The position numbers and the translations under genes are program-made. A model generated the notes under the pieces. The model ran no database searches. It worked only from the letters and a program-made list of their open reading frames with translations, and was not told the origin of the DNA. 64,000 nt of DNA, from NCBI GenBank assembly GCA_964642835.1, contig CAZXQA010000001.1, positions 132,314-196,313 on the forward strand, given 5' to 3'. This document shows, piece by piece, positions 7,610 through 30,768 of the stretch. How positions within the stretch are numbered: the stretch's first letter is position 1; each line of letters opens with the position of its first letter. The stretch comes from an uncultured Candidatus Saccharibacteria bacterium. Its GTDB lineage: Bacteria; Patescibacteriota; Minisyncoccia; Phycocordibacterales; Zambryskibacteraceae.

Positions 7610-8872
7610 GTGTCTTCCTCTTCACCAGATTGGGACGTCATTGTCGTCGGCGGTGGACCGGCGGGGATGATGGCGGCCGGACGAGCAGCCGAGCGCGGGG
7701 GCAAGGTACTTCTTCTCGAGAAGAATCGTGGCTTGGGCAAGAAGCTTCTTATTACCGGTGGTGGACGATGCAACGTGACGAACGCCGAGCCCGACGTGCG
7801 CAAACTCCTCGCGCGTTTTAAGGAAAGTACGGAGTATCTCTTCTCCGCGTTCTCGCAGTGGGGTGTGAAAGAAACGCTTGCCTTCTTTAACGACCGAGGG
7901 ATGGAGACCAAGGTGGAGAACGAGCAGAGAGTTTTCCCGGTCAGTAACTCCGCTCAGTCGGTTTGGGACGTCGTCGTGGGATACATGAAGAAGCATGGCG
8001 TTGCTGTGGAGTCCGGAGCCGCGGTGGCAGGTCTTGTAACAGATGAGGGTAAGGTGACCGGTGTGGCGCTTAAAGACAAAAGAGTGCTCCAGGCTCACTC
8101 CGTTATCCTCGCGACAGGTGGCATCTCGCACCCGGAGACTGGCTCGACCGGGGACGGCTTCCGTTGGCTTAAGGAGATCGGGCATACGGTGAAGCGGCCA
8201 GAAGCTTCGCTCGTGCCTATTGCCGTCCTGGAGCCCTGGGTGGCTCGTGTGGCGGGTCTTACGCTACCAGAGGTAAAGATCACTGTTCTCCATGAAGGGG
8301 TGAAGCAAGAGAAGGTGGCAGGGAAGATCCTTTTCACTCACGTGGGCTTGAGTGGGCCGACTATTTTGAATCTGAGCCGGAGCGTGGGAGAGCTCTTGAA
8401 GTATGGCAAGGTTACTCTCTCACTCGACGTTGCGCCCACCATGGACTATGGCGTTTTGAACCTGAAGCTCCAAGAAATTTTTGCCATAGAAGATAAGAAA
8501 AAGTTTAAAAACTCTCTTTCCTCACTCGTGCCCTCGTCACTTGCTCCGGTTATCATCATGCTCTCCGGCATCGATCCCGACAAGCAGTGCAACGGCGTCA
8601 CTCGCGAAGAGCGCTTGAAGCTCGTGACGCTCTTGAAGCACTTGGACCTTACCGTCGCGGGTCTCTTGGGGGAAGACAAGGCCATTACCACCTCGGGCGG
8701 CATCTCTCTCGACGAGGTCGACTTTAGAACCATGCGTTCGCGTCTGTTCCCGAATCTCTATGTCGTGGGGGACGTCCTCAATATCGACCGTCCTTCTGGT
8801 GGCTATAGCTTGCAGTTGTGTTGGACCACTGGCTTTGTGGCGGGCAATGCCGTCCCTGTGGACAAAGGATAA
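7610..8872 (+). CDS. HI0933-like FAD-dependent oxidoreductase (BaiN / aminoacetone-oxidase family flavoprotein)
   Basis: GTG start. DVIVVGGGPAGMMAA dinucleotide-binding motif, ITGGGRCNVTN family signature, C-terminal GD...LNIDRPSGGY. Confidence 0.8.
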   Translation: MSSSSPDWDVIVVGGGPAGMMAAGRAAERGGKVLLLEKNRGLGKKLLITGGGRCNVTNAEPDVRKLLARFKESTEYLFSAFSQWGVKETLAFFNDRGMETKVENEQRVFPVSNSAQSVWDVVVGYMKKHGVAVESGAAVAGLVTDEGKVTGVALKDKRVLQAHSVILATGGISHPETGSTGDGFRWLKEIGHTVKRPEASLVPIAVLEPWVARVAGLTLPEVKITVLHEGVKQEKVAGKILFTHVGLSGPTILNLSRSVGELLKYGKVTLSLDVAPTMDYGVLNLKLQEIFAIEDKKKFKNSLSSLVPSSLAPVIIMLSGIDPDKQCNGVTREERLKLVTLLKHLDLTVAGLLGEDKAITTSGGISLDEVDFRTMRSRLFPNLYVVGDVLNIDRPSGGYSLQLCWTTGFVAGNAVPVDKG

Positions 8873-8956
8873 TCCTTTGCACGATTAGCATTTCTTGCCC
8901 AACTACGTGATAATGGTCGGGTGAAGTTTATTCAGTAACTCGTAACTCTTACACAC

Positions 8957-9178
8957 ATGAAGACAATGACCTGCGCTCAGATGGGTGGAGCTTGTGACGC
9001 CGCTATCACTGGCAGCACCAAGGAAGAAATGCTCGCAAATGGCATGAAGCACCTTGAAGAGGCTCATCCGGAAATGGCCGCCGACGTGAAGGCTACTCCG
9101 ATGGATGATCCGAAGATGATTGAGTGGAATCAGAAGTTTGAAGCAGACTTCGCCGCCGCTCCTGAAGCAGCAATGTAA
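8957..9178 (+). CDS. DUF1059 small metal-binding protein
   Basis: 73 aa, MKTMTCAQMGGACDAAITGSTKEEMLANGMKHL matches the DUF1059 pattern. Followed by a hairpin plus T-run. Confidence 0.55.
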   Translation: MKTMTCAQMGGACDAAITGSTKEEMLANGMKHLEEAHPEMAADVKATPMDDPKMIEWNQKFEADFAAAPEAAM

Positions 9179-9203
9179 TTCTCTTCGCTTTGGCGAACGT
9201 AAA

Positions 9204-9230
9204 GGCTCCCCACTGGGGAGTTTTTATGTT
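9204..9230 (+). terminator. rho-independent terminator after the DUF1059 gene
   Basis: GGCTCCCCACTGGGGAG followed by TTTTTAT. Confidence 0.5.
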
Positions 9231-9248
9231 ACGTTTATGGAGAAAGAT

Positions 9249-9321
9249 TGCCCGATCGTCTAATGGTAGGACAGAGGCCTTTGAAGCCTTTAATTGGGGT
9301 TCGAATCCCTGTCGGGCAGCA
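9249..9321 (+). tRNA. tRNA-Gln (anticodon UUG)
   Basis: Cloverleaf folded by hand: acceptor TGCCCGA/TCGGGCA with U1-A72 and G73 (Gln identity elements), D-arm GTCT/GGAC, anticodon stem GAGGC/GCCTT with loop CTTTGAA, T-arm TGGGG-TTCGAAT-CCCTG. The 3' CCA is not encoded (gene ends GCA then A). Confidence 0.8.
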
Positions 9322-9375
9322 ACACAAAATTTTACGCATGTCCAGTTAGACATGTGTGAAAATTTTGTTGTCTCT
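9322..9375 (+). terminator. long inverted repeat (hairpin) immediately 3' of tRNA-Gln
   Basis: ACAAAATTTTACGCATGTC...GACATGTGTGAAAATTTTGT, about 19-bp stems. Confidence 0.45.
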
Positions 9376-9461
9376 GCCCAGAAGCGAGCAACATTTTGCT
9401 CGCGCCAGGGATTCGAAAGGATTTTCGTTATTGTGCGAAGCGAAATCGAAAATCACCCGCG

Positions 9462-9575
9462 ACGGTAGTCGAGAATCCCTGTCGGGCAGCCAAGTCGTGC
9501 GACGCACGAGACGCGTCAAAACAACAATATTTTAGGTCTGCATAGAGCGCACCCGTTTAGGACAGGGAAACCTGG
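9462..9575 (+). repeat. tRNA-Gln-derived intergenic repeat, copy 1 (3'-end+CCA module, hairpin, 5'-half-like module)
   Basis: TCGAGAATCCCTGTCGGGCAGCCAAGTCGTGCGACGCACGAGACGCGTCAAAACAACAATATTTTAGGTCTGCATAGAGCGCACCCGTTTAGGACAGGG. The first 17 nt equal the tRNA-Gln 3' end plus CCA. The last part matches the tRNA-Gln D-arm/anticodon stem (TAGGACAG) with the D-loop deleted. Confidence 0.7.
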
Positions 9576-9707
9576 GTGAGCTTCACATATTGAAAATAAC
9601 CAGATTTCATGTTAATTTAAATCCATAGTATTCAATAATTAGATTGCCCAATGAAGACACAAGGCTAACTTTATAAGTTAATTATCCGTTCAAGCGGAGC
9701 TTTGTGT

Positions 9708-11132
9708 ATGCAATCTAAAACTCCCATCAAAAGACCGGTTATTCTCTCATGCCGGCACCTAAAAAAGACATTTAACACCGTAGATGTTCTGAAAGACATT
9801 ACGTTTTCAATTCGCCAAGGCGAAAAGATTGGTGTTGTTGGACCAAACGGCTCAGGAAAGAGTACGCTTTTTGCGATGCTCGCCAATCTGATTGAAAAAG
9901 ATTCTGGACTCATTACATATGGTAAGGGAATAAATGTGGCTTACTTACCCCAAATCCATGAGCAGGAGGAATTAAGTGGTGGAGAAATGGCCAGGAAGGT
10001 ATTGAAGCCGATTATGGGTTCCGATGCAGATCTGTTTCTATTGGACGAACCAACTAATAACTTGGATGTGGATGGGTTAGAAATGGTTGAGAAATTCGTA
10101 AGAGAAAACTCCAGCGCTTTTCTAATCATTTCGCACGATCGTACATTTCTAGATCGTACCGTCTCCAAAATTATTGAGCTAGACCCATACTCCAAAACAG
10201 CCTACGTATATGAGGGTAATTATTCCTCATATATAGAAGAGAAAACAGCAAGAATTGAACGAGCCTGGCATAAATACAGCGACGCTCAAGAGAAGACTCA
10301 AAAACTTTCTAAAGAAGTTGACCAGAGACTTTCTTGGATGAAAAAGATTGAGCAAAAACGGCTCGATATCAAAAAGATTCCAAAGAACATAACTGAAAAG
10401 CCTCACGCTGCGGTTTTGCGTGACAAAGAAGCCAAGGCGGGCAGAAGGGCACGTCTCCTTAAGGATAGGCTTGAAGCTCATAAAGAAGAAGTTAAAGCAG
10501 AGATTGAAAAGCCTGCTCGCGAGCTTCCATTGAAAATTAACTTTGAACCAGTGCGAGGCAGTACCAAGGTTCTGAGTCTCACTAAAGTTGTAAAAAAGCT
10601 GGGTTCAAAAGTAATTGGACCAATCGATGTCTTTATCCAGTATGGGGATAGGGTTCACATAACAGGTAAAAATGGAGTTGGAAAAACAACACTTCTTAAG
10701 CTTATGTTAGGTGAAATGGTGCCAGATAAAGGAGAATTTGTTGTAGGGGAAAACGTTCGCACTGGGTATGTAGAACAATTGAAGGATAGAAATTCTCTAT
10801 CTCAAACAGCCTTAGAGCATTTCCTTGAAAAGACGAAACTCGATCAAACAAATGCTCGCAAAATTCTCAATCGTTTCCGTATTACAACGGAAGATATTGG
10901 TAAAAAAGTTGGCGAATTAAGTCCAGGAGAGTATTCAAGGTTGGTGATAAGCGAATTGGTTGCGATTCAGCCAAATTGCATCATTCTCGATGAACCAAGC
11001 AACCATCTTGATCTTGAGGTTCTGGAAGAGCTTGAAAAGGGGTTGGTAAATTTCCCAGGTACGTTGATTGTGGTGAGCCACGATAGATATTTTGTCGAGA
11101 AAATTAAACTCACCAGAGAAATTTCTCTGTAA
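9708..11132 (+). CDS. ABC-F family ATPase (tandem ABC domains, no TMD; EttA/Uup-like translation factor class)
   Basis: Two Walker A motifs (GPNGSGKST, GKNGVGKTT), two signature/Walker B sets, charged inter-domain linker. GGAG box 8 nt upstream of ATG 9708. Confidence 0.9.
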   Translation: MQSKTPIKRPVILSCRHLKKTFNTVDVLKDITFSIRQGEKIGVVGPNGSGKSTLFAMLANLIEKDSGLITYGKGINVAYLPQIHEQEELSGGEMARKVLKPIMGSDADLFLLDEPTNNLDVDGLEMVEKFVRENSSAFLIISHDRTFLDRTVSKIIELDPYSKTAYVYEGNYSSYIEEKTARIERAWHKYSDAQEKTQKLSKEVDQRLSWMKKIEQKRLDIKKIPKNITEKPHAAVLRDKEAKAGRRARLLKDRLEAHKEEVKAEIEKPARELPLKINFEPVRGSTKVLSLTKVVKKLGSKVIGPIDVFIQYGDRVHITGKNGVGKTTLLKLMLGEMVPDKGEFVVGENVRTGYVEQLKDRNSLSQTALEHFLEKTKLDQTNARKILNRFRITTEDIGKKVGELSPGEYSRLVISELVAIQPNCIILDEPSNHLDLEVLEELEKGLVNFPGTLIVVSHDRYFVEKIKLTREISL

Positions 11133-11352: not shown

Positions 11353-13800
11353 TCAATTATTTTGTGTTTGAGTTGTCGTGACGGATGCACTTGGTGCGAT
11401 ACGAAGAAAGAGAATTAGGAGCAGGCTGAATTCGAAAGCGCCAATGATCGGAGCGCTCCATGCGAGTCCTAAGAGGCCAAATGGGATACCAAGCCCGAAC
11501 AAGGCGAGGAATTTTGCCGTATGCGTGCTGATTTCACTGATGTAGAGCGTGCGGGTCTTTCCGAATGCGGTGAGCGCCGCCCGCAGAAGTCCGACCGGTG
11601 CAAAGGCGACACACATGAACATGATCTGAAAGTAAATAACGGATTCTGGATAGTTTGGAAAGAGGATGCTGTATACAAAAGGAGCGCACGCTATTCCGAA
11701 TATGACCATCGGTATCGTGAGAAGGAAAAGAGCCCCCGTTTTACGGAGTATCGAGCGCTTAAGTTCGGGGGTGTGTAGGTGCGTGCTTAGGTGCGGCAAC
11801 GTAATCGTGCCGATGGGGAGAAGCTGGAATACTTTCATGATTGGCGTTGCGGCGAATGTCTGGATGGCGGTGGCGGTAGGGCCAAGAAGCCACCATACAA
11901 AGATTTTATCGAGGTTTTCCGAAATGGTACGCAATATCTGCATGGCGGTAAGATGGAACCCGAGGGAAAGGGAAGAATCGCTCTCGGGACCGACTGCCTG
12001 CCGACGTACGGTCAGAAATACGAGTATCCCGACAATCGTTTGGACACCCAGGACCCCTGCGACAATAACGATAAGGTTGTTTGAAAGAAGAAGTATCGGG
12101 ATGCTCCCGAGCGCGAGCCCGACGAAATATATGACGGTTACGGATGCGCTCACTCCAAAGCGCTTTTTGCCCTGCCAATAGTTCATGGCAAAGACGCTGA
12201 AGGTGTCGGTGAGCGGTACAAACGGAGCGGAAACAACAAATGCCCAGCCAAGTGAAGAGTTTCCGCTAAGGAGAAACCATGCGCCGATGACCGAGGCGGC
12301 GAGCGTCCCGAGCATGCCCCATCGTAAGCGCGCCCGTAGCATCGGCCACACACTACCGTCATTGCCTTGGGCCACCGCGCGTACGAGCGCGTTGTTCATA
12401 CCGGGAAGCGTGGAGAGGCTGAGTATGCTAAGCGTGGCTATAAGATAGTTGTACGACCCAACCACTTCGCGCGGCACGCGGGCCGCCATCGTCGTCACTA
12501 CCGCGAGCGAAGCGAGCAAGGCTCCGAAACGGCCGATCGTAATGTAGAGCGCGTTGTGCGTCGATTCCTTTAGCGGCATGGCGTCGGGGGTGCGGAGGCG
12601 TTCGCGAGAGCCGCGTATGCCGAACATGGTTCGAAGGCGAATCGCATACTTTCGGGCGGCAAACTTTATAAATTGCCGCAGGTTAGAAACACCATATGTC
12701 TGCATGAGATATGCGACAAATCCGAGCGGGCTACGGTTTGTCTCATGTTTCCAGTATGCATACCAAAGAGTTGGTACGTTGCCGATAGGCGAATAGCGTT
12801 CCTCGTGTATGGTATTCGCGTAGTTTTCGTACGCTCGCCGCTCATTCCTTGAAAAGGGGACGGCTTCTAACTGTTCAAGAAACCAGGCGGGAATCGGCGC
12901 TTGCCAGCGCTCTTTGAGGTAGCGGGCGGCAAGGAAAACTTCAAGGCTGAATCCAAATCGCCGCGCCGATGCCGCTACCGCTTCCCAGTCGACTGGGAAG
13001 GCCTCCATAGCACGAAGTGCGTCTGCAACCCAACGTAGCGTACGCTGGCTGTTTCCTTCGGTGCCATGAATCATGAGATGGATAAGAAAATACTCATTCG
13101 AGAGCCGGAAGCACGGTATGCCGTCGATATCCATGCGTACAGCCGTTTGCCACAGAACTGTGCGAAGAGCTTCGGATGAAGGGGTTTTTAGAAGAAAAAG
13201 ATCGATAGTAGGCGTGTGGTGCGAAAGTGAGAAGATGTTCCAATGGACGTCAACTTCGAGATCACCAGGCCCTATGAAGAGCGTCTCCTTAATGACCTGG
13301 TAAATGCTCGAGACGGGATGGAGTGCGTCGGGCGCATAGGGGATACCATGATGAAAGCCATGTTGATGCAAGAGGGTTGTCATCTGGTATCCGTATTCCG
13401 GCGGTATGAGAATATCGGCATCGCCCAAAAAGCGTGAACCCCGGTCGCGATAGACTTCCAATAGGAGTGGTGTACCCTTTAGGACGAGAATGGGGATGTG
13501 GTGTTTGTCGCAGAGCGTGGCGATACTCTTGGTGATTGCAAGAATGCGTTGGTTGCGCACCCAGGCGCTACGGTATGCACCTTTGATACGATCGTAATAC
13601 TCGTCTTTTATACCCAAACGCTGCATGCGCAGATAGATGAGGGGTACAAGACGGAGATAAACGCCATCGATGCTCTCGAATGTATTGTGCTGAATCCAGA
13701 TCCGCCAAAGGCTCGGGAAATCGCTGTCGCGACATAAAACAAGTTCAAGAAAGGCTTCTTCGTCGAGTGTGGGAAAGCTGTCTGGGTATGGAAGAGGCAT
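11353..13800 (-). CDS. fusion protein: N-terminal uncharacterised nucleotidyltransferase (NTP_transf_5-like) + C-terminal Wzx-like polysaccharide flippase (about 12 TM helices)
   Basis: 815 aa. N-terminal half has LGDADILIPPEY (GDxD nucleotidyltransferase motif) and is soluble. C-terminal about 400 aa is polytopic with oligosaccharide-flippase-like helices. Confidence 0.6.
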   Translation of the reverse strand: MPLPYPDSFPTLDEEAFLELVLCRDSDFPSLWRIWIQHNTFESIDGVYLRLVPLIYLRMQRLGIKDEYYDRIKGAYRSAWVRNQRILAITKSIATLCDKHHIPILVLKGTPLLLEVYRDRGSRFLGDADILIPPEYGYQMTTLLHQHGFHHGIPYAPDALHPVSSIYQVIKETLFIGPGDLEVDVHWNIFSLSHHTPTIDLFLLKTPSSEALRTVLWQTAVRMDIDGIPCFRLSNEYFLIHLMIHGTEGNSQRTLRWVADALRAMEAFPVDWEAVAASARRFGFSLEVFLAARYLKERWQAPIPAWFLEQLEAVPFSRNERRAYENYANTIHEERYSPIGNVPTLWYAYWKHETNRSPLGFVAYLMQTYGVSNLRQFIKFAARKYAIRLRTMFGIRGSRERLRTPDAMPLKESTHNALYITIGRFGALLASLAVVTTMAARVPREVVGSYNYLIATLSILSLSTLPGMNNALVRAVAQGNDGSVWPMLRARLRWGMLGTLAASVIGAWFLLSGNSSLGWAFVVSAPFVPLTDTFSVFAMNYWQGKKRFGVSASVTVIYFVGLALGSIPILLLSNNLIVIVAGVLGVQTIVGILVFLTVRRQAVGPESDSSLSLGFHLTAMQILRTISENLDKIFVWWLLGPTATAIQTFAATPIMKVFQLLPIGTITLPHLSTHLHTPELKRSILRKTGALFLLTIPMVIFGIACAPFVYSILFPNYPESVIYFQIMFMCVAFAPVGLLRAALTAFGKTRTLYISEISTHTAKFLALFGLGIPFGLLGLAWSAPIIGAFEFSLLLILFLRIAPSASVTTTQTQNN

Positions 13801-13807
13801 GGAAATA

Positions 13808-14497
13808 TTAACGCATTGAACGTCTACGATCGATACTGGCCTTCATGATCTTGAGATAGTCGCTATGTCCGGCGAGGTTGAGAGTTGTATTAGTTTGGTG
13901 AACACGCCGTAGATAGAGTACTTCTTGAAGCATGATATGTTTCAGACCAAATTCTTCCGCTCGCATTGTCCAGTCAATAAATTCTCCGATACGATACGCC
14001 TCGTTGAAAGGTCCGACTTTCTTCATGCTCGCTGCCCGTCCAAGAAATGTGGCGGATATTCTGTTGGCAAGAGGCCCCTCAAGAAAGCGTTTTGTGGTGC
14101 GAACAGAATCAGGCAATTCGGGGCTGATAAAATTTTCTAACATACAGTGAACAATGTCGAGATCTGGATGTGTATCGAACATTTCCATTTGTCGTGCAAG
14201 CTTATTTGGTTTCCAAATATCATCAGCGTCGGCGAGCGCGATGAAGGAGCCTCGTGCGATGCGGATGCCCGAGTTGCGTCCAGCGGCAATGCCGCGATTG
14301 GCACGGTGAGATATTACGGTGATTCGGTCGCCGAACGTCTTGAGGGTGGCAGAGGTGGCGTCTGTCGAACAGTCGTCTACCACGATAAGCTCAAGAGGGG
14401 TATATGTTTGGTCAAGAATGCTGTTAATGCTTTCGGCAAGATACGGTTCGCCATTGAGTACTGTCATAACTACGGAGACAAGAGGATTCATACTCAT
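13808..14497 (-). CDS. glycosyltransferase family 2
   Basis: 229 aa. VSVVMTVLNGEPYLAESINSILDQTY, DDCSTDAT, ADADD (DxD). 4-nt overlap with the upstream kinase gene. Confidence 0.85.
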   Translation of the reverse strand: MSMNPLVSVVMTVLNGEPYLAESINSILDQTYTPLELIVVDDCSTDATSATLKTFGDRITVISHRANRGIAAGRNSGIRIARGSFIALADADDIWKPNKLARQMEMFDTHPDLDIVHCMLENFISPELPDSVRTTKRFLEGPLANRISATFLGRAASMKKVGPFNEAYRIGEFIDWTMRAEEFGLKHIMLQEVLYLRRVHQTNTTLNLAGHSDYLKIMKASIDRRRSMR

Positions 14498-15624
14498 AGA
14501 GAGGGAGCGAGAGACGCCGGCCGGGCGTCAAGAAAGGCGCGTATCGTTTCGGGTACGGCGCGCACGTGAGGGCCCAACTCAAGAATAAAGCACGGTGTCT
14601 TCCCAATGATATCGGCGAGAGAAGAGGTCTTCGATGAGGGTGCGAGCGGAAGTTGAAAAAGGGTAGTCGGCACCAGGGCAAGCATGGCTTCAAGTTTTGT
14701 GGCGGGGATAATGCGCGTATGCGAGGCGATGCGCGGAATGAAAATCGCCGCAAGCGGCGCGCACTCCTTTAATTGCCGGGGAAATAGTTCGGATAGAAAC
14801 ACGATCGCTTTTTCAGCCTCTTTTTTCCCGACGCCCTCCGCATTCCAGATAGAGGTGCGAAATTCGGGGAAGTTGGGGAGTTGCTCGGGCTTTATTTTGA
14901 CGGAATTATAAAGGCTGTGCACGCTATTTTGCTCAATGAGAACATAATCGTCCCCGATATAATCCATACCCGACATGAGGCAGGAGAGCGCGGTGGTTGA
15001 TTTTCCCGAGCCGCCCACGGCAGATAACAGCACGGCTCCATTCTCTGTGCCCACCGCGGCTCCATGAACAAAGTGAATGTCGTGATGGGAGAAAAACCAA
15101 TGCAATATAGTGCGCAACGGCGCCGCATGCATCCACTCGGGCACGGCGGCGGCATCATGAATCCAAAAGTAGGCTGTCTGCGAGGCGTAATCGTAGAGAT
15201 ATAGTATGTCCTCGCCGCGCACGAATACGCCCCGGAACGTCGGGTCTGACTCCTTTGCTTTGTCGGGAGTTTCCAGGTTGCCGTATGCAGGATCAGACCA
15301 AGGGCCGCCTAGCGGTACGCCGGAGGAAACACTATCGAGCAGATGAATGGTAAGATCGGGTTCGGCATTACTTGCGGTGGGCAGGTGCGCGAAGGCGCGC
15401 GCGGCGAATTCTGCAAAACGCGGGGCATGCGCACGTATTCGGACGGTTTTACCGGCGATGCGGCGTGTCGTATCGATCGAAGATTTTGCCGAAATGACGG
15501 CTTCAAATGCGGGGACAAATACTTCATCGAGATAATCTCGATGAATAGTGGCGTAATGTTGCATTACGACGGTGTGTGCGTTCTGAGCCATGCGGTAAGT
15601 TTTTGTTTTTCCGACTCGCACCAA
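14494..15624 (-). CDS. HPr kinase/phosphorylase-related P-loop kinase (HprK-related kinase family)
   Basis: 376 aa. GAVLLSAVGGSGKSTTAL Walker A of the HprK C-terminal-domain type, upstream HGAAV block. Lacks the HprK N-terminal domain. Confidence 0.65.
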   Translation of the reverse strand: MVRVGKTKTYRMAQNAHTVVMQHYATIHRDYLDEVFVPAFEAVISAKSSIDTTRRIAGKTVRIRAHAPRFAEFAARAFAHLPTASNAEPDLTIHLLDSVSSGVPLGGPWSDPAYGNLETPDKAKESDPTFRGVFVRGEDILYLYDYASQTAYFWIHDAAAVPEWMHAAPLRTILHWFFSHHDIHFVHGAAVGTENGAVLLSAVGGSGKSTTALSCLMSGMDYIGDDYVLIEQNSVHSLYNSVKIKPEQLPNFPEFRTSIWNAEGVGKKEAEKAIVFLSELFPRQLKECAPLAAIFIPRIASHTRIIPATKLEAMLALVPTTLFQLPLAPSSKTSSLADIIGKTPCFILELGPHVRAVPETIRAFLDARPASLAPSL

Positions 15625-15637
15625 ATTAGAGAATCCG

Positions 15638-16003
15638 TTAGTCCGCCTTTCGCTTCGGCCAGCCCATAGCGTCCACGTCGTGAATGGGGTCGGTGAGAAT
15701 CATTTCCTGCATGTCGGTATAGATTTCGACCGCGGGCGCCTGAAATACCGCTTCGTCCGCAAGATCCCCCGCCTGCTCGGTCTCTCTGATCAGCCCTTCG
15801 GAGAGGAGGGTAGCGACGAATGCGGAGATAGTAGAATTCCCGAGAGGAATAGCTTTGCCGTTGCCTATGGCCGCCCATAACGCAGTCCCGTCTTGGTTCA
15901 TGCTGTAATACGAGCCGGTTTCGATATTGATGACGATCGTCTCATTCTCAAGCGTCTCGCTGATAGCGGTTTTCGAATTTATGGCGTAGGTTTTTGCACT
16001 CAT
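15638..16003 (-). CDS. PqqD-family protein (RiPP recognition element-type peptide chaperone)
   Basis: 121 aa. ETLENETIVINIETGSYYSMNQDGTALWAAIGNGKAI matches the PqqD/RRE pattern (…L.n..tg.yy.LN..g..iW..l…). Confidence 0.65.
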   Translation of the reverse strand: MSAKTYAINSKTAISETLENETIVINIETGSYYSMNQDGTALWAAIGNGKAIPLGNSTISAFVATLLSEGLIRETEQAGDLADEAVFQAPAVEIYTDMQEMILTDPIHDVDAMGWPKRKAD

Positions 16004-16041
16004 GAGTAGTTATTATACTTATCTTTGAGAAATGGAAAAGA

Positions 16042-17292
16042 TTATGGCCGTATTATCTCTCCTCTCTTCTCCGCGTTGCGCACCAAGTTCGTCGCAGAGA
16101 CAGCGTCGCGCACGGCCTGAGAGGAATGATGCTTCCGCACCCACGAAGCGGCCTCGGCGCAAAGCCGCTCGGCCAACCCCGGATCATTTAAAAGGTTGAC
16201 GCAGGCCTCAGCAAACGCTTCGGGTTCATCGGCGATGAGAAGGTGGCGATTGTGCTCAACTCCCAGTCCTTCTGCGCCGATGGCGGTTGAAACCACCGGG
16301 CGGCCAAGCCCGAACGCTTCAAGAATTTTTACGCGGGTGCCGCCTCCGGATCGAATCGGTACAAGGCAGATAGAAGCATTTTGATACACCGGCATGAGGT
16401 CCGCGCGGTTGCGGTCAAAAATGATACCGGGAGTGCCATCGGGGCGAAAGGACGAAGGCGGATTAGCGCCTACCAAATGAAGTTGCAAGGCGCCCTCGTG
16501 CAGCGCTTGTATGCGCGGCCATATTTTATCTACCAGAAACTTTGCGCCGTCGAGATTGGGGAAGTAGTCCATTTTGCCGACGAACATGAGGGTGCGCGGC
16601 AGACTGTCGGGCGGAGGAGGCAGGCGCGAGGCCTGATGCGTTGCATTAGGAATCGCTACGACGCGCTCCGGTTCGGTAAGCGCGCTTATGTTCTCCTTTT
16701 CGCGCGTAGAGGCTACGTAGATTTCTTGGAACTGAGGAAGTAAAACGCGTTCCATCATGCGAAAGAGATGAAGCCCACGCTGCAGTTCCTCGACCTTTTC
16801 GGGCGGAAGACCCGGAGTTTTGAGAAACCGCAGCTGCCGTTTCGAAAGCATCTCATCTAAATCCAGATACACCGGCTGGAGACGGTCGAGTATCAGACGG
16901 ACAAAAACGGCGGTGTCGAATGCAAAGAGTAACGTAGCGTCGATGGCTTTTTCGGCATGAAGCTTTGCAATGAGCTCGGGGGCTTCTTGGGTGGTCGCAT
17001 ATACGGATGAGGGCGAGGCTCCGGCGGAAGCTCGGCGCTCATCGAGCGTATCACTCATATGCAGGTAGGTTATTGAGGCGAAACGAGCAAGGAGCGGCGC
17101 ATCAGGCTGTCCCGATAGAGCATCCGCGTAGATAATTACTACGTGTATGTTAAAGGAATCAGCCAGCGCGTCGAGGATGTGAGCGGCGCGTTGCTGACTG
17201 CCCGTGCCGAGGCGAGTGGGTTGATCGCGCCATATCCATAAAAGATTCGGGCGAGAATCTGCAGATTTTGAGGTAGCGTACATTGCGACCAT
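16042..17292 (-). CDS. glycosyltransferase family 1 (GT-B, GT4-like)
   Basis: 416 aa. C-terminal GGGTRVKILEAFGLGRPVVSTAIGAEGL, the E-x7-E nucleotide-sugar binding region. Confidence 0.85.
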   Translation of the reverse strand: MVAMYATSKSADSRPNLLWIWRDQPTRLGTGSQQRAAHILDALADSFNIHVVIIYADALSGQPDAPLLARFASITYLHMSDTLDERRASAGASPSSVYATTQEAPELIAKLHAEKAIDATLLFAFDTAVFVRLILDRLQPVYLDLDEMLSKRQLRFLKTPGLPPEKVEELQRGLHLFRMMERVLLPQFQEIYVASTREKENISALTEPERVVAIPNATHQASRLPPPPDSLPRTLMFVGKMDYFPNLDGAKFLVDKIWPRIQALHEGALQLHLVGANPPSSFRPDGTPGIIFDRNRADLMPVYQNASICLVPIRSGGGTRVKILEAFGLGRPVVSTAIGAEGLGVEHNRHLLIADEPEAFAEACVNLLNDPGLAERLCAEAASWVRKHHSSQAVRDAVSATNLVRNAEKRGEIIRP

Positions 17293-17381: not shown

Positions 17382-17825
17382 ATGGAATATAGAAAAGCCA
17401 ACTCTTTCGGAGTTATTCCAGTCTGCAAAGACGCCAATGTCTATAAAATATTGATAGTTAAAAATAGTAAGGGTTGTCACTGGGGTTTACCAAAAGGCAC
17501 ACCCGAAGGTAACGAAATTCCGTTAGAGACAGCTGAAAGAGAGCTTAGGGAAGAAACTGGCATTGGATCAAGTGGTATTAGAATACAAGAGTCTCCTGTT
17601 TTCCTGGAATCATATTCTTTCAAACAGGGTGATCTTGTTTATGATAAAACGAATACTTATTATCTTGGATTTGTTTCTGAAATGAGTATTGGAAAGAACC
17701 TTGATGAAATAGATGAAGTTAGGTGGATTCCAATCGATGAAGCTGTAAATATCTTAAGTCATCAAAGTGTTATTGATGTTATATCTAAACTAAGAAGTTA
17801 CTTAAATACTCATAATTTGGTATAA
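17382..17825 (+). CDS. NUDIX hydrolase
   Basis: 147 aa. NUDIX box GLPKGTPEGNEIPLETAERELREETGI. Confidence 0.85.
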   Translation: MEYRKANSFGVIPVCKDANVYKILIVKNSKGCHWGLPKGTPEGNEIPLETAERELREETGIGSSGIRIQESPVFLESYSFKQGDLVYDKTNTYYLGFVSEMSIGKNLDEIDEVRWIPIDEAVNILSHQSVIDVISKLRSYLNTHNLV

Positions 17826-17837
17826 TCAACTTTTCTT

Positions 17838-18377
17838 ATGGACACATATAAAAAATTAGGCACCTTCTACCAACGGGACATTTTCCCACAAATGGAAGAT
17901 ACTCCGTGTGATTTTGAGGATCGTGTAACTGGTAAAAGCATCATTACTAATGAGAGAGGCGGTGTTGCTCTTGTTGGAACCGCAGTTAACTATATCTATA
18001 CCTTGCCTGGTGGCGGAGTAGACGCTGGGGAAAGTATTGAGGAAGGAATTTGTCGTGAAGCCAAAGAAGAAACTGGGTATGATACTGAATGGGTTCGCAA
18101 GATTGGTGTAATTGATGACTTTAGAAATCGAGACAAAAAGCACTGTATAAGCTATTGTGCCTTGCTTAAGGCTACGAGCGAAGTCCAAGAGCTAAACTTA
18201 ACTGATGATGAAAAGAAGAATGGTTTGCATGTAAAGTGGTTTGGTTTGGAAGATGCTAAAAAAGTACTCAGTGAAGAGAATGAACAAGTTAAGAAAGGAG
18301 AGATTTCTTTCTACAATACAGCTTTTAATGTGGTCAGAGACTATGAGTTTCTTAAAGAGTATCAGAAAACTATTTAA
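17838..18377 (+). CDS. NUDIX hydrolase (second, tandem)
   Basis: 179 aa. NUDIX box GGGVDAGESIEEGICREAKEETGY. Confidence 0.85.
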   Translation: MDTYKKLGTFYQRDIFPQMEDTPCDFEDRVTGKSIITNERGGVALVGTAVNYIYTLPGGGVDAGESIEEGICREAKEETGYDTEWVRKIGVIDDFRNRDKKHCISYCALLKATSEVQELNLTDDEKKNGLHVKWFGLEDAKKVLSEENEQVKKGEISFYNTAFNVVRDYEFLKEYQKTI

Positions 18378-20337: not shown

Positions 20338-22062
20338 ATGCAAGTCTTAGGAATAAATACCGGACACGACGCGAGTGTCGCCTTGGTACGAGATGGGATT
20401 TTTGTGGAGGTGGTCAATGAGGAACGCTTTAGTCGTTATAAAAATCACCACGGATTTCCGAATCGTTCGGTTGCCTACATAAAGGAAAAATATCTGATAG
20501 ACTCCTTTGACCGAGTCGTGCTTGTATCTGCTAACGGTCGATATGACACGCCGCTTTTTGGTGATAAGGAAAATGAGGTTTTGCGCAAGCGTACCGGCGA
20601 ACCGCTTTTTATCAAGGCGGCATTCTTTAAATTAGGATTGCTCCAGGTGTGGCGTAATGTTCGGTATTGGTTCCATATCCGTTTCAAACAACCCGCGCTC
20701 AGAAAAAAAATACACGATCTCGTTCGCAAGCATTTCCCGACAGAAGAGATAATACATCTGGATCATCATTTAGCTCATGCTTGGTCAGCACTCGCATTCA
20801 CTGAACAACCGGAAGAGGCCCTCATAATCACTCTCGATGGCGAGGGTGATGGTTTGTGCGGATCGGTAAATTGCTACAAGAACAATCGATTGTCTCGGGA
20901 AATAGCTATCCCCGCCGGAGTCGGTATCGGAACATTGTATGGCAAGGTGACCGAATTTATGGGAATGCGACGCAATGAGCACGAGTTTAAGGTAATGGGC
21001 CTGGCTCCTTACGCTAAGTCGGATGCCGCTGAGCCTTTTCTTATACATTTGCGATCTCTTATCAGCTTTTCGCCGAAATCGCTCTCTTTTTCAACGCCTT
21101 TCCATATGCAGTATGCCAAATATTTTTTTATGTCAAAAACCTTCTCAAACTATCGTTTCGAAGCCTTAGCCAGCGGGATTCAGAAATTTACTGAAGAATT
21201 AGTTACGCAATTTTTAAAGGCGATATTGGACGAGTATCCATCAAAACATGTTTGTGTCGGCGGCGGTGTCTTCATGAATATTAAACTCAATCAGGTTATA
21301 CAGAGGAATTTTCCCGATATAGATCTTACCTTTACACCATCATGCGGAGATGATTCGCTATCAATCGGCGCCGCGAAGTACGGATATGACACTGCCGTTA
21401 ACGGACGTACGAAGCCGATTGAAACTCTATATTTGGGTTCTGAATACACGGATGAAGAAATCGGAGCCACAATCAATGAGTTTTCTGATAGAGATTTTAA
21501 AATCCGACACTTTTCAACGGACGGTGAGATCGAGGACGAGATATCGCGTCTTCTGGCTAAAGGTCATATCGTTGCGCGTTTTGCCGGCCGAATGGAGTGG
21601 GGTTCGCGAGCCCTCGGAAATCGCTCTATTCTGGCAAACCCGTCCGACCCACGGATTATTAGGAAAATTAATGAAGCCATCAAAAATCGTGATTTTTGGA
21701 TGCCGTTCGCGCCTACGATTCTCGATGAGGTAGTGGATGAATATTTGATAAATCCCAAAGCCTCACCGTTTATGATGGTTGGATTTGAAACGACCCCTCT
21801 GGCACAGGAACAAATACCTGCCGCTTTGCATCAGTATGATTTCAGTTGCAGGCCGCAAATTCTCAAGAAGAACGACAATCCGGAATTCCATCACCTGATC
21901 TCGCTCTTTAAGAAAAGAACGGGTATCGGCGCAGTGCTTAACACCAGCTTTAATTTACACGGCAGTCCGATCGTTGAGGGCCCGAAGACTGCTATTACCA
22001 CATTCACGCAATGCGGCCTCACACATCTTGCTATTGGAAACTATCTTTTAGTTAAAGTTTAG
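20338..22062 (+). CDS. carbamoyltransferase (NodU/CmcH family; Kae1/HypF-like ASKHA fold)
   Basis: 574 aa. LGINTGHDASVAL N-terminus and HHLAHA motif typical of NodU/CmcH O-carbamoyltransferases. Confidence 0.8.
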   Translation: MQVLGINTGHDASVALVRDGIFVEVVNEERFSRYKNHHGFPNRSVAYIKEKYLIDSFDRVVLVSANGRYDTPLFGDKENEVLRKRTGEPLFIKAAFFKLGLLQVWRNVRYWFHIRFKQPALRKKIHDLVRKHFPTEEIIHLDHHLAHAWSALAFTEQPEEALIITLDGEGDGLCGSVNCYKNNRLSREIAIPAGVGIGTLYGKVTEFMGMRRNEHEFKVMGLAPYAKSDAAEPFLIHLRSLISFSPKSLSFSTPFHMQYAKYFFMSKTFSNYRFEALASGIQKFTEELVTQFLKAILDEYPSKHVCVGGGVFMNIKLNQVIQRNFPDIDLTFTPSCGDDSLSIGAAKYGYDTAVNGRTKPIETLYLGSEYTDEEIGATINEFSDRDFKIRHFSTDGEIEDEISRLLAKGHIVARFAGRMEWGSRALGNRSILANPSDPRIIRKINEAIKNRDFWMPFAPTILDEVVDEYLINPKASPFMMVGFETTPLAQEQIPAALHQYDFSCRPQILKKNDNPEFHHLISLFKKRTGIGAVLNTSFNLHGSPIVEGPKTAITTFTQCGLTHLAIGNYLLVKV

Positions 22063-22750
22063 ATTCCTGGTGAGTAAATGGGGTATTTATTTCTGATACA
22101 TCCGGGAAAAGCTCTTTTGCGCGCTCGTAATCTTCCGGAGTGTCAATCTCGATCCACTTGGCATCCGAAACGATTGGCGCGACACGAGGTCGCAATTTAC
22201 CTTCGCCGACTCCGACTCCCCACCATTTGAGATGGTCTAGATCCTCGTAGATCGCTTGTAATGCGTCGGAGGTGACTAGAGTACAGACCTCGGCCCCGTA
22301 ACCGTGCTCTTTTGAATACTCAACAATTCTGCCTTCCTTAACTACCACCTTCATCGCTTCCGGATCATCGAAATCAGGGTCGATCAAGGAAACGGATTCA
22401 TGGTATTGATTGTAATTGTCTAACAGGGGCAATAATGCTCCAGGCGAAAGCACCAGGTCGGCATCTATAATTAAAGTATCGGCATATCCGATTGCATCAA
22501 GCGCGATTTTTAAGCCTTGAGCATTATCACCATGCTGATAATCTGGATTTGGAATAAGGGTAACTTCCGTAGATAAACTCGCAAACAGTTCGGACTGATG
22601 GCCTATGACAACATAGATCTGGTTGATGCCGTAACCATGAAGTTGTTTGAGCATGCGCCCAATAATCGACTCCCCTTGGATTTTCAAAAAAGGCTTGGAT
22701 ATCCCATTAAATCGCGAAGCCACCCCAGCCGCCATGATCAGTGCTCTCAT
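22052..22750 (-). CDS. sugar-/alcohol-phosphate nucleotidyltransferase (LicC/MobA-like NTP_transferase fold)
   Basis: 232 aa. LIMAAGVASRF (GxGxR nucleotide-binding loop). Confidence 0.7.
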   Translation of the reverse strand: MRALIMAAGVASRFNGISKPFLKIQGESIIGRMLKQLHGYGINQIYVVIGHQSELFASLSTEVTLIPNPDYQHGDNAQGLKIALDAIGYADTLIIDADLVLSPGALLPLLDNYNQYHESVSLIDPDFDDPEAMKVVVKEGRIVEYSKEHGYGAEVCTLVTSDALQAIYEDLDHLKWWGVGVGEGKLRPRVAPIVSDAKWIEIDTPEDYERAKELFPDVSEINTPFTHQESKL

Positions 22751-22790
22751 AATGCTATTCCTTGTATAAGATTTATACTATAAATATATC

Positions 22791-24125
22791 ATGAGAATTC
22801 AGGCTGGATTAACGGATGCTACGCCTTTTCTACCCCCGTTAGATATAAGGAGTTTTGATGAGTTGGCATCAAATCAAGTTGCCGCCACTCTAGACAAGGC
22901 GGCAGGATTACAGAAATCCGGCATCATTCACATTTCCGCCTCCAGATTGAGAGAGGATAAGGAGACTGGAAAGAAGTATATCGGTGGAGGTGGGCTGGCC
23001 GAAACTCTACGGGACCAGATCCCCCTAGAATCTTCATGCGGATTAAGAAGTTCGCTCTATTTACCGAATGCTCAATCGTCTTACTATCCAATTTGTCAAA
23101 AAATCTTTTCGCAGATTATCGGAGAGACAGACCGCTGTTTGTTACCCTCTGACATCGAAGAATACACGATGACCTGCACAGATCTCCGGCCGCAATTACA
23201 AAAAACGCTTATGCAAGAGCGCCCGGAGATCGTAATAATGCACGACTTTGAATTTTTACCACTGATCAGCGCCGTACCCGATTCTTTAATAAAGATCCTT
23301 CACTGGCATGTTGATTTTCCATCCAACCCTTCTGACTGTATTCCTGTCTTAATGCCATATTTAAAACAATTCGACGTGGCAATAGCTGCCGATAAAGAAA
23401 TTGCCGATAAATTGGCGTCAGTAATCCCAAACACGCGAGTCATATCGCCGAGCGTAAACCCGCAAACGATAAAACTTTCGACACCCACATCATCAAATAG
23501 AAAGAAAATTCTGGAGAAGTTGAGCATCGATTACAATCGTCCCATACTTTCTCAAATCGGAAGAATCTCAAACCAGAAAGACCCCGTATCGGTCGTGAAT
23601 ATCTTCAAGCGTGTGCGCGAAAGATTTCCGGGAACACAACTTGTCTTGGCGGGAATGTTTAATTTACCCGGTGAGGATTTCACGCTTACTTTACAAGAGT
23701 TGAGGAAACAAATCGGTCAAGACCGGGATATACACCTAATTACAAGCCCTTTAGAGATCAGCCCTTTTTCCAATGATGAATTCCTTGCCACCCTCTACTC
23801 TTCGAGTGACATTCTGATAAATATCGGCAAAAACGAAGGATTCGGATTAGTGATGACAGAAGCTATGTGGCATGGCAATATAGTGGTCGCGATGGATTCG
23901 CCTGGCGCCCGCACACAGATTGATTCTGGTCATAATGGCTTTATTATTTCCGACTTGACCCAAGCGGTTGAAAAAATCAGTGATATATTGCGGGAGCCCG
24001 ATAAATTCAAGGGTATAAAAGAGCGCGCGAAACAATCAGTGCGGGACAGGTTCTTAATCACGAATTATATGGAAGATATGATAGATTTGTACAAATCACT
24101 GCAAAAAAACCATGAGTTCAGATAG
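22791..24125 (+). CDS. glycosyltransferase family 1 (GT-B)
   Basis: 444 aa. C-terminal NEGFGLVMTEAMWHGNIVVAMDSPGARTQI donor-binding region. True start may be downstream of 22791. Confidence 0.7.
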   Translation: MRIQAGLTDATPFLPPLDIRSFDELASNQVAATLDKAAGLQKSGIIHISASRLREDKETGKKYIGGGGLAETLRDQIPLESSCGLRSSLYLPNAQSSYYPICQKIFSQIIGETDRCLLPSDIEEYTMTCTDLRPQLQKTLMQERPEIVIMHDFEFLPLISAVPDSLIKILHWHVDFPSNPSDCIPVLMPYLKQFDVAIAADKEIADKLASVIPNTRVISPSVNPQTIKLSTPTSSNRKKILEKLSIDYNRPILSQIGRISNQKDPVSVVNIFKRVRERFPGTQLVLAGMFNLPGEDFTLTLQELRKQIGQDRDIHLITSPLEISPFSNDEFLATLYSSSDILINIGKNEGFGLVMTEAMWHGNIVVAMDSPGARTQIDSGHNGFIISDLTQAVEKISDILREPDKFKGIKERAKQSVRDRFLITNYMEDMIDLYKSLQKNHEFR

Positions 24126-29354: not shown

Positions 29355-29356
29355 TT

Positions 29357-30364
29357 ATGAAAGCATACACATTACACGTATCGGGTACCCACTGTGCGTC
29401 ATGCAAAATCTTAATCGAAGATGTTTTAAATGATCAATATTATATTAGTAGTGCACAAGTAGATTTAAAAAATCAAACCTTACATATAGAAACTGTGAGT
29501 GAGAAATCTCCAGAAGAATTAGCAGTTTTACTTACTGAGAAGATAAGGCCAAACGGTTATACAGTATCAGTAGAAAAGGTTTTGATAGAAAAACAAAAAG
29601 ATGATGTTATCTGGAAAGCACTACCTATAGGGTTAGTATTCTTAATACTTTTCTTTGTATTACAAAAGTCAGGGCTATTAAATCTTGGTATCGGTGGTAC
29701 AACCACGCCTGCCACAAGTTTCATCATTGGGTTAATCGCATCTGTATCAAGTTGTCTTGCGGTGGTTGGAGGACTTGTTCTATCACTCTCAGCAAAAATC
29801 TCTCAAGACGATGTAAGTGATACAAAAACTTTCATACTTTTCCATATCGGAAGACTCGTTAGTTTTGCGCTCCTTGGCGGAGTGCTTGGCTTAGTTGGGA
29901 GTGCTATAGGAATCAGTTTTACTTTTACTGCAATCCTAGGGATTGTTGCGTCAACAGTAATGCTCCTATTGGGACTTAATCTAGTCGGAGTGTTCAAAAA
30001 GAATAAAGTTGCGTTACCTTCAGGAATTTTTAACTTCTTCCGCAAAATCGAACACAAGACTCTAACTCCTTTAATAATTGGATTTGCTACATTCTTCTTA
30101 CCTTGTGGCTTTACTCAGTCGATGCAAGTAGTAGCACTATCTAGCGGTTCATTTATTTCAGGATTACTTATTATGCTTGCGTTTGCTCTCGGTACGCTCC
30201 CAATGCTTTTGCTCCTGTCGTTTGGGGGAGCATCACTTGCTCATGGGAAACATGCACCACTTTTCTTTAAATCTGCTGGAGTGGTAGTGATAGGTCTTGG
30301 AATATTTGCACTGCTTGCAGGTCTGGCAGGACTCGGAATTATTAATCCTTTATTTAATATATAA
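29357..30364 (+). CDS. HMA-domain fused membrane protein (TauE/SafE- or DsbD_2-like 6-8 TM permease), putative copper handling
   Basis: 335 aa. N-terminal GTHCASCKILIE HMA domain, then a polytopic region with conserved Cys pairs (SSCLAV, LPCGF). Confidence 0.65.
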   Translation: MKAYTLHVSGTHCASCKILIEDVLNDQYYISSAQVDLKNQTLHIETVSEKSPEELAVLLTEKIRPNGYTVSVEKVLIEKQKDDVIWKALPIGLVFLILFFVLQKSGLLNLGIGGTTTPATSFIIGLIASVSSCLAVVGGLVLSLSAKISQDDVSDTKTFILFHIGRLVSFALLGGVLGLVGSAIGISFTFTAILGIVASTVMLLLGLNLVGVFKKNKVALPSGIFNFFRKIEHKTLTPLIIGFATFFLPCGFTQSMQVVALSSGSFISGLLIMLAFALGTLPMLLLLSFGGASLAHGKHAPLFFKSAGVVVIGLGIFALLAGLAGLGIINPLFNI

Positions 30365-30372
30365 TTAACTTT

Positions 30373-30768
30373 ATGAATAAAATCGCTTTATCAATTATTA
30401 CTATCGGACTCATTGTTGGAATTGGTGTTATTTTTGTAGGATCGAAGGATGGCGACAAAACTGCATTAACACAGTCTATGCAAAATGTTGAAGTAAAAGA
30501 TGGGATTCAATACATAACTATCGACGCTAAAGGTGGATATTCTCCAAAACTCTCTAATGCAAAGGCTGACATTCCTACCAAGTTGATCGTGAAAACAAAC
30601 GGAACTTATGACTGCTCTTCTTCACTTGTAATCAAGTCATTGGGATATCAAAAGATATTAGCGCAAACTGGAGAAGAGATGATTGATGTTGGAACACCTA
30701 AAGCAGGAGAACCACTTCAAGGAGTTTGTGGTATGGGGATGTATAGCTTCGTAGTTAATTTTAGCTAA
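30373..30768 (+). CDS. membrane-anchored cupredoxin-like copper-binding protein
   Basis: 131 aa. N-terminal TM, C-terminal C…GVCGMGMYSF Cys/Met cluster as in Cupredoxin_1-type proteins of cop operons. Confidence 0.45.
   Translation: MNKIALSIITIGLIVGIGVIFVGSKDGDKTALTQSMQNVEVKDGIQYITIDAKGGYSPKLSNAKADIPTKLIVKTNGTYDCSSSLVIKSLGYQKILAQTGEEMIDVGTPKAGEPLQGVCGMGMYSFVVNFS

Follow-up and report, generated by a model that had tools for sequence, protein, structure and literature searches.

A widespread kinase, glycosyltransferase, and nucleotidyltransferase cassette whose recognition protein appears to carry its own ligand

In phosphorylated lasso peptide pathways, HprK-like kinases phosphorylate a serine of paeninodin-type precursors; in the case of the pseudomycoidin pair PsmK/PsmN, the nucleotidyltransferase is needed to place one or two hexoses on the phosphorylated peptide, and in phosphorylated lasso clusters the nucleotidyltransferase gene adjoins that of an ATP-binding cassette (ABC) exporter. 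The linear polyphosphorylated peptide (LPP) clusters of Bacillota, described by Popov et al. (Nat Commun 2026, PMC13381572), combine a RiPP recognition element (RRE; RiPP, ribosomally synthesized peptide that is post-translationally modified), an HprK-like kinase, a nucleoside triphosphate (NTP) transferase, an MsbA-like exporter, and a signal-peptidase-like protease, and are often found in capsule loci; polyphosphorylation of Ser3 was demonstrated, and the NTP transferase showed no activity in the heterologous host (PMC13381572). They are the closest described system to the cassette reported here, a five-gene operon on the minus strand of a 64,000-nucleotide stretch of DNA ("the window", meaning the whole 64-kb stretch) from an uncultured Candidatus Saccharibacteria bacterium. 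The operon codes for a glycosyltransferase of GT1 fold, a PqqD-like RRE protein, a two-domain P-loop kinase, a GT2 glycosyltransferase, and a nucleotidyltransferase fused to a Wzx-like membrane domain.

This operon probably builds and exports a phosphate-linked sugar conjugate. More specifically, and only tentatively, we read the cassette as a phosphoglycosylation and export module in which the RRE is an adaptor that provides its own ligand. The original prediction, made from the letters of the window, had proposed a precursor-guided system and held the gene combination to be undescribed. Indeed, we found no description of this cassette in the literature searched, nor anything relevant there on the HprK-related kinase, HPr-rel-A, or the nucleotidyltransferase family PF14907; the LPP clusters, published in 2026, nevertheless narrow that claim of novelty.

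A core conserved across more than ten phyla

All five co-directional minus-strand open reading frames (ORFs) of the original prediction are present, between positions 11353 and 17292 of the window. A scan of one genome per species returned at least 277 relatives, and 80 loci were kept. They cover more than ten phyla: Patescibacteria, Gamma-, Delta-, and Alphaproteobacteria, Acidobacteriota, Cyanobacteria, Actinomycetota, Chloroflexota, Planctomycetota, Chlamydiota, Bacteroidota, and Nitrospirota. A locus was deemed complete when at least 6 kb were available on both sides of the kinase gene, which left 48 loci, and gene content was tallied with hidden Markov models (HMMs) built from the window proteins. 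Around the kinase of these 48 complete loci, a PqqD-like gene is found in 47, a GT2 gene in all 48 (one to four copies per cassette), and a PF14907 gene in 46; 12 have a GT1 gene no more than 6 kb from the kinase, and one has a Wzx domain. The RRE gene is directly upstream of the kinase gene in 62 of the 73 loci where this could be judged, and the order PqqD-(GT2)-kinase-GT2(n)-PF14907, seen in an Uhrbacteria and a Halioglobus genome, is conserved over the 80 species-level loci. The core of the cassette is made of the PqqD-like RRE, the kinase, one to four GT2 enzymes, and the PF14907 nucleotidyltransferase, usually accompanied by an exporter and with GT1 as an accessory, and this association of genes goes far beyond chance.

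The trio of PqqD-like protein, HprK-like kinase, and PF14907 enzyme, which the original prediction had called recurrent, is real and strongly syntenic (46 to 48 of the 48 complete loci). Its proposed wiring to glycosyltransferases and a flippase holds for GT2, which belongs to the core; GT1 is an accessory (12/48) and the Wzx fusion is rare and lineage-specific. The gene neighbourhoods also show that the full five-gene operon exists elsewhere: one relative (L087) has the same five genes, with GT1 in the same position, at 76% identity and in a different genomic neighbourhood, and the operon therefore behaves as a unit.

Gene fusions link the same partners. A kinase-GT2 fusion is found in eight loci as well as in P0016 and P0117, and a protein in which three RREs are fused to the kinase is found in L040 and in five representative clusters. 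These triple-RRE kinases measure about 780-850 aa (P0160-P0162, P0176, P0259, and L040 at 8633-10990). It could be objected that the operon is an ordinary polysaccharide one and that its small ORF and P-loop ORF are unrelated hitch-hikers or mis-annotated fragments, the Pfam scores of both window proteins being below gathering thresholds. We give next to no credence to this explanation: both proteins and their order are conserved across phyla, both have high-confidence folds, and the natural fusions, together with synteny, refute a coincidental adjacency.

Some cassettes hold additional genes. In Gammaproteobacteria, a sulfotransferase-like gene stands between the GT2 genes in L004/L059, L019, L038 (Halioglobus, Halieaceae), and L086; the Halioglobus/Halieaceae loci, not L086, also have a Methyltransf_24 gene in that place. 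Both genes suggest a decorated glycan. A sub-type of the cassette (L023, L026, L042, L045, L069, and L073) codes for a 742-aa protein joining TPR repeats to a double GT2, a TPR protein of about 500 aa, a large GT1, an ABC exporter, and a second, divergent PF14907 protein.

The recognition protein, its motif, and its possible substrates

The PF05402 (PqqD) score of the RRE protein (15638-16003, minus strand, 121 aa) is 23.0 bits for a gathering score of 23.4, over the first 29 model positions only, and it has no match to TIGR04353 (PqqD_rel_X), which is matched by 7 of 31 relatives. On the other hand, a precomputed PF05402 match exists for 29 of the 34 listed relatives, and the lasso model lasso_PqqD_Bac (NF033536) matches the window protein at 1e-5 and 30 of 31 relatives. 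The AlphaFold model has a pLDDT (predicted local distance difference test score) of 83, with residues 1-95 confident, and its best match among solved structures is the lasso RRE TbiB1 with its leader (5v1v_A, probability 1.0, template modelling (TM) score 0.68); the top four Foldseek matches are all TbiB1-leader complexes (probability 0.99-1.0, TM 0.62-0.68). The model has the winged-helix RRE fold with its three-stranded sheet, to which a peptide is predicted to bind as an added strand. Homologues and structure model together make the PqqD-like call genuine despite the sub-threshold Pfam score.

An alignment of 74 RRE proteins of the family revealed a four-part architecture: an N-terminal RRE, a variable linker, the motif [F/Y]xxPx[L/I/V], and a tail of the form xx[Y/F]xD[M/L]Q..LLxDPIHDVDxxGWP. 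The linker, of 15-32 aa, is rich in P, A, S, and T, and contains Ser or Thr in 73 of the 74 proteins (median 4). In the motif, the first column is F in 63 members and Y in 9, the proline is present in 73, and L, I, or V closes it in 68; in the window protein it reads FQAPAV (aa 87-92, 15728-15745, minus strand). The conserved tail follows at aa 95-116 (YTDMQEMILTDPIHDVDAMGWP, 15656-15721, minus strand); across the 74 sequences, five tail residues never vary (D97, D105, P106, H108, and P116) and two hardly do (G114 and W115). At position 96, 50 of the 74 have Thr or Ser, 15 have D or E, and the others A, R, K, or H; no Ser, Thr, or Tyr of the tail is invariant.

The RRE-binding motif published for lasso and LPP leaders is [Y/W]xxPx[L/V/I/F/A] (PMC13381572), and the motif that the RRE protein carries in cis fits it. 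AlphaFold places a beta-strand past the variable linker, at residues 92-95 (pLDDT 75-87), and gives low confidence to the DPIH...GWP segment alone (pLDDT 44-61). A profile search of the RRE family over 1.84 billion representative proteins yielded 977 clusters at 50% identity (E <= 1e-30). Proteins with two or three tandem RREs exist (P0156-P0159, P0163-P0165, P0167, P0207, P0232, and P0239); in these and in the triple-RRE kinases, a separate [F/Y]xxPx[L/I/V] motif comes after each RRE repeat, whereas the DPIH...GWP element occurs once per protein. On the strength of the motif and of the model, the RRE appears to be self-liganded in cis, and the invariant DPIHDVDxxGWP tail would be a docking or presented segment.

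A built-in ligand has to be weighed against the more classical idea of the original prediction, that of a RiPP whose unlinked precursor peptide is bound in trans, phosphorylated on Ser, glycosylated, and exported. In its favor, ribosomal peptides are the substrates of the homologous lasso and LPP modules, the RRE belongs to the lasso B1 type, and ABC exporters of the kind found in the cassettes include bacteriocin exporters. All unlabelled ORFs (25 aa or longer) surrounding the 80 kinase loci were clustered and, for each RRE gene, the small ORFs on the same strand in the 900 nt upstream were listed. No recurrent family of small ORFs adjoins the cassette across the 80 loci; the sole match was a 26-aa ORF in three Nostoc loci. 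This ORF (MNLAKVLVDNEAKETHHNSSESFKET and close variants) lies about 380-400 nt upstream of the RRE gene in L034, L037, and L044, and its conservation may be trivial because these genomes are closely related. We also considered a trans precursor bearing the docking motif of the family, and rejected it: of the strict motif, 68 occurrences lie in RRE tails and the other two, chance matches, inside nucleotidyltransferases.

Other hallmarks of a peptide pathway were looked for as well. The LPP-type leader YxxPxVLxHQxIxFETxxS has no match in any frame of the 64-kb window, and no second copy of the tail motif is found there. No SpI-like (SipW-type) leader peptidase is encoded among the five operon proteins or their neighbours, nor any leader peptidase in the Pfam-annotated relatives L002, L004, L085, L086, L087, and L088. 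A lasso cyclase (Asn-synthetase-like, C), a transglutaminase-like B2 peptidase, and a precursor (A) are absent from the operon and its flanks, in agreement with the original prediction, which had seen no cyclase, leader peptidase, or precursor in the operon. With a groove predicted to be occupied in cis, a docking motif confined to RRE tails, and neither a leader peptidase nor a conserved small ORF next to the cassette in the 80 loci, an unlinked precursor is improbable. The "precursor-guided" part of the original prediction has become doubtful, as no precursor gene was found in the 80 loci and the RRE itself carries the leader-like motif.

If no peptide comes from elsewhere, the RRE protein could itself be the substrate, its cis motif docking so as to present the linker loop or the tail to the kinase, the nucleotidyltransferase, and the glycosyltransferases; the product would then be a phosphoglycosylated protein, or a peptide or cofactor-like molecule derived from it. 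The RRE protein is the sole member of the conserved core that is neither an enzyme nor a transporter, and its succession of RRE, linker, and leader motif mirrors the leader-core logic of RiPPs. Ser or Thr is present in nearly every linker and at position 96 of most members, the tail is predicted to be disordered alone, and no trans precursor was found. However, no hydroxyl residue is invariant in the tail, position 96 also accepts D, E, A, R, K, and H, no protease is seen in the Pfam-annotated loci, the tail is internal in the triple-RRE kinase fusions, and there is no known precedent for the export of a folded protein of 13-16 kDa by a Wzx or an MsbA-like pump. We judge this reading to be rather unlikely. 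A bolder form of it, to which we grant a slightly smaller chance still, is that an RRE tethered to its own docking motif is a self-guided substrate, whose conserved phosphoglycosylated product would be nearer to a cofactor or a cell-surface primer than to an antibiotic; if true, it would concern a family of about 1000 protein clusters in more than ten phyla, including the genome-reduced Patescibacteria.

Position 96 also bears on a further possibility. Bona fide HprK/P is a regulatory protein kinase, and one may imagine a regulatory module in which the kinase acts on Thr/Ser96 of the RRE tail, or on a partner enzyme, and the added phosphate switches the glycosyltransferases and the exporter on or off instead of being a biosynthetic intermediate. 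The alternation of T/S (50 proteins) with the phosphomimetic D/E (15 proteins) and the existence of RRE-kinase fusions would fit such a switch, as would the regulation by protein phosphorylation exerted by HprK/P. The presence of A, R, K, or H at the same position does not, and the kinase-GT2 fusions and the strict co-occurrence with PF14907 mirror the biosynthetic kinase/nucleotidyltransferase pair of lasso clusters; the chance that we leave to regulation is slim.

From kinase to exporter

The start of the kinase gene can be placed at an ATG (14494-15591, minus strand, 365 aa) or at an upstream TTG (14494-15624, minus strand, 376 aa). The ATG at 15591 is more likely, because the 365-aa form is the one called on a public contig and present in the protein collection. 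With this start, the intergenic gaps of the operon are 38, 46, -4, and 7 nt, the negative value being a 4-nt overlap of the GT2 start with the kinase stop.

The kinase scores 20.4 bits for Hpr_kinase_C (PF07475; gathering score 33.3), 17.5 bits for TIGR00679 (cutoff 240), 31 bits for TIGR04352 (HprK_rel_A), and 28.5 bits for HprK_rel_B (cutoffs 200), and the NCBIfam matches span about 55-75 residues around the P-loop. The 23 relatives tested all match HprK_rel_A and HprK_rel_B weakly, with a best E-value of 1e-12. Homologues of the kinase number more than 818 and keep the motifs HGAxVG...GGSGKSTTA...GDDY; G196, K197, S198, H176, and D214-D215 are invariant in 102 of them, the P-loop GGSGKST itself being found at aa 193-199 of the 365-aa form (14995-15015, minus strand). 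PF27840 is precomputed on many of these homologues. The structure model (pLDDT 92.8) has the PEPCK/HprK fold, with a P-loop C-terminal domain, the His, the GxSGxGKS-like loop, and the Asp-Asp pair. The kinase belongs to the PEPCK/HprK superfamily and is not HprK_rel_A, HprK_rel_B, or a bona fide HprK. As its scores are far below the HprK_rel_A/B cutoffs, and as only 7 of 31 relatives of its partner match PqqD_rel_X, this is a separate family that has no NCBIfam model. The "HPr-rel-A" membership suggested by the original prediction is therefore not retained.

The other domain identities given there are correct, whether by Pfam score or, for the PqqD-like protein and the kinase (both formally sub-threshold), by homologues and structure. 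The GT2 (13808-14497, minus strand, 229 aa) is a small soluble GT-A enzyme (PF00535, 7e-33, 114.4 bits, above the gathering score) matched by solved GT-A enzymes at 2e-19. The GT1-fold (GT4-type) glycosyltransferase is encoded by the first gene of the operon (16042-17292, minus strand, 416 aa) and is a lineage-specific accessory; it matches PF13692 above the gathering score (83.6 bits, 2e-23), and its best NCBIfam model is stp1 (TIGR03087; 127 bits, cutoff 316). The 815-aa fusion protein (11353-13800, minus strand) begins with a PF14907 (NTP_transf_5) domain (aa 50-298, 12907-13653, minus strand; 9.5e-35, 120.8 bits for a gathering score of 31.2), in which a G-T...D-x-D motif lies at aa 109-129. 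Its Wzx-like (MOP/Polysacc_synt) membrane domain (aa 415-815, 11356-12558, minus strand) matches PF01943 over aa 415-668 (6.7e-10, 39.3 bits for a gathering score of 28.2), and a Kyte-Doolittle scan finds at least seven strongly hydrophobic regions at aa 417-801; a flippase role is predicted. A sequence search of the PDB with the whole fusion gave no match.

Ten protein clusters, with identities as low as 43%, keep the fusion. About 30 of the 80 cassettes encode a co-directional ABC exporter of about 540-590 aa; the window operon and its Patescibacteria relatives have none and carry instead the Wzx-like domain fused to the nucleotidyltransferase. The Wzx fusion is a rare, lineage-specific stand-in for the ABC exporter, confined to a small clade of Patescibacteria. 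We tried to class the ABC exporter as a lipid or a peptide exporter from solved structures and gave up this classification, since Sav1866, PCAT1, and MsbA score alike. In two relatives, L085 and L088, the cassette with the fusion adjoins Bac_transf, further glycosyltransferases, Wzy_C, and an epimerase; neither has a second gene with a PF01943 match.

From these elements, we infer the following mechanism. The RRE would bind its own [F/Y]xxPx[L/I/V] motif in cis and its invariant DPIHDVDxxGWP tail would join the kinase, a step to which motif conservation, the AlphaFold model, and natural fusions point. The kinase would then phosphorylate a hydroxyl group, as suggested by its P-loop, His, and Asp-Asp motifs and by the demonstrated activity of distant homologues. 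By analogy with PsmK/PsmN, the nucleotidyltransferase and GT2, joined by GT1 in the window, may attach and extend sugars to give a phosphodiester-linked glycan; the product would leave through the Wzx-like domain on the nucleotidyltransferase or, in other lineages, through the ABC exporter. A separately encoded precursor would not be used. As for the acceptor, our committed guess for this lineage is a glycan intermediate that is lipid-linked and membrane-associated, the RRE serving as a self-liganded adaptor or a regulatory subunit; we favor it because of the Wzx fusion, the Wzx/Wzy context of L085 and L088, the glycosyltransferase-rich content, and the PEPCK-like two-domain kinase. The main alternative acceptor would be the linker or the tail of the RRE protein itself.

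One has to weigh several points against this proposal. All of its support is computational, and cis docking in particular is deduced from motif logic, secondary structure, and the pLDDT of a single AlphaFold model. Characterised HprK-like kinases are only distant relatives of the kinase, its NCBIfam matches being confined to the P-loop region. Compared with solved structures, the ABC exporter resembles lipid and peptide exporters alike, no initiating phosphoglycosyl transferase or Wzy adjoins the window operon, and Bac_transf is near the cassette in 1 of the 80 loci only. With the homologous trio, only ribosomal peptides have been demonstrated as substrates. Finally, we know of no role of an RRE in glycan or lipid-linked pathways.

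RREs are usually taken as the hallmark of the recognition of separately encoded precursors, and a built-in ligand would extend the concept to in-cis, adaptor, or self-substrate roles. The cassette is also a tractable five-gene system in which to find the products of PF14907 enzymes and HprK-like kinases. Its retention in tiny Patescibacteria genomes, the flippase fusion, and the occasional Wzx/Wzy loci point to a cell-envelope function, which could matter for the way in which Patescibacteria episymbionts build their surface.

The operon is flanked by dnaX, a flavoprotein gene, tRNA-Gln, an ABC-F gene, two NUDIX genes, and metG. The NUDIX hydrolase genes stand in tandem (17382-18377, plus strand) and are transcribed divergently from the operon, 89 nt of intergenic DNA lying between them and the GT1 gene; on the public contig L001, this pair adjoins the operon as well. 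A second glycan-related set (20338-24125), 3 kb from the operon and extending over 3-7 kb from it, comprises a carbamoyltransferase (20338-22062), a MobA-like NTP transferase (22052-22750, minus strand), and a second GT1 with a TreT-like N-terminal domain (22791-24125). Scans for promoters and terminators returned counts equal to the shuffle expectation and are thus uninformative on the boundaries of the operon. The GC content of the operon is 0.48-0.56 for 0.34-0.41 in its immediate flanks, and is bimodal gene by gene across the window: the operon, dnaX, and the flavoprotein gene are at 0.48-0.57, the ABC-F gene and the two NUDIX genes at 0.34-0.41, and the regions at 34-42 kb and 56-60 kb at about 0.36-0.41. 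We rejected horizontal transfer as an inference from the GC of the operon, which is not diagnostic because the nearby dnaX and flavoprotein gene share a value of 0.56.

Further away, a LOOT RNA (RF03000; 32184-32301, plus strand; 75.7 bits, gathering score 46.4) is separated by 134 nt from a gene for a large serine recombinase (Resolvase and Recombinase domains), with a DNA methylase gene close by; the genes beside the RNA are at 30761-32050 and 33188-34597, both on the minus strand. The region may be a mobile element. At 27060-30364 (plus strand) lie genes for a copper-type P1B ATPase, which has an HMA domain, and, after it, for an HMA-DsbD_2 membrane protein.

Comparison with known systems

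Two known systems offer precedents. In borosins such as OphMA, the substrate segment is covalently attached to the protein that recognises it; mycofactocin (MftB/MftF) is a cofactor pathway that depends on an RRE and in which a conserved peptide-derived product is glycosylated by a GT2. Unlike them, the cassette has neither a methyltransferase nor a radical-SAM enzyme, and the match of the window GT2 to the MftF model (1e-18) is far below the MftF cutoff and reflects a generic GT-A similarity.

Like HPr-rel-A (TIGR04352, TIGR04353), HprK-related kinase B, and the SynChlorMet proteins ScmC/ScmD, the cassette pairs an HprK-related P-loop kinase with a chaperone of the PqqD family, but the kinase scores, at 31 and 28.5 bits for a cutoff of 200, and the lack of a PqqD_rel_X match to the window protein set the cassette apart. 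With Wzx/Wzy-dependent loci, it has in common the PF01943 domain, a GT1, and a GT2, and the L085 and L088 cassettes stand beside Bac_transf, Wzy_C, and an epimerase; in contrast, its Wzx is fused to PF14907 and co-transcribed with an RRE and a kinase, and an initiating transferase and a Wzy are not near the window operon.

When enzyme types are compared with the published description, the cassette follows the RRE, kinase, nucleotidyltransferase, and exporter logic of LPP clusters, is embedded in or beside polysaccharide loci like them, and has an RRE ligand motif of the [Y/W]xxPx[L/V/I] type. LPP clusters, however, have a leader peptidase and separate precursors with a YxxPxVLxHQxIxFETxxS leader, both of which are absent here, and are reported as restricted to Bacillota, whereas this cassette is found in more than ten other phyla, including Patescibacteria. 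It also differs from them by its core GT2 enzymes, by an RRE with a cis ligand motif and the DPIHDVDxxGWP tail, and by its exporter, which is a Wzx domain fused to the nucleotidyltransferase in the window and of ABC type in about 30 of 80 relatives. As far as the sequences tell, what would be new relative to described systems is that every RRE comes with a leader-type motif in cis and a near-invariant tail.

With the tailoring module of paeninodin and pseudomycoidin, the cassette shares the HprK-like kinase and the nucleotidyltransferase-type enzyme; the published chemistry indeed bears out the original prediction that the same enzyme types tailor phosphorylated lasso peptides. It differs from that module in having no lasso cyclase, B2 peptidase, or precursor, and in its distant kinase, related through the P-loop region; its extra GT2 and GT1 imply a longer glycan. 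The cassette is an evolutionary relative of the modules that phosphorylate and then glycosylate in paeninodin/pseudomycoidin lasso and LPP clusters.

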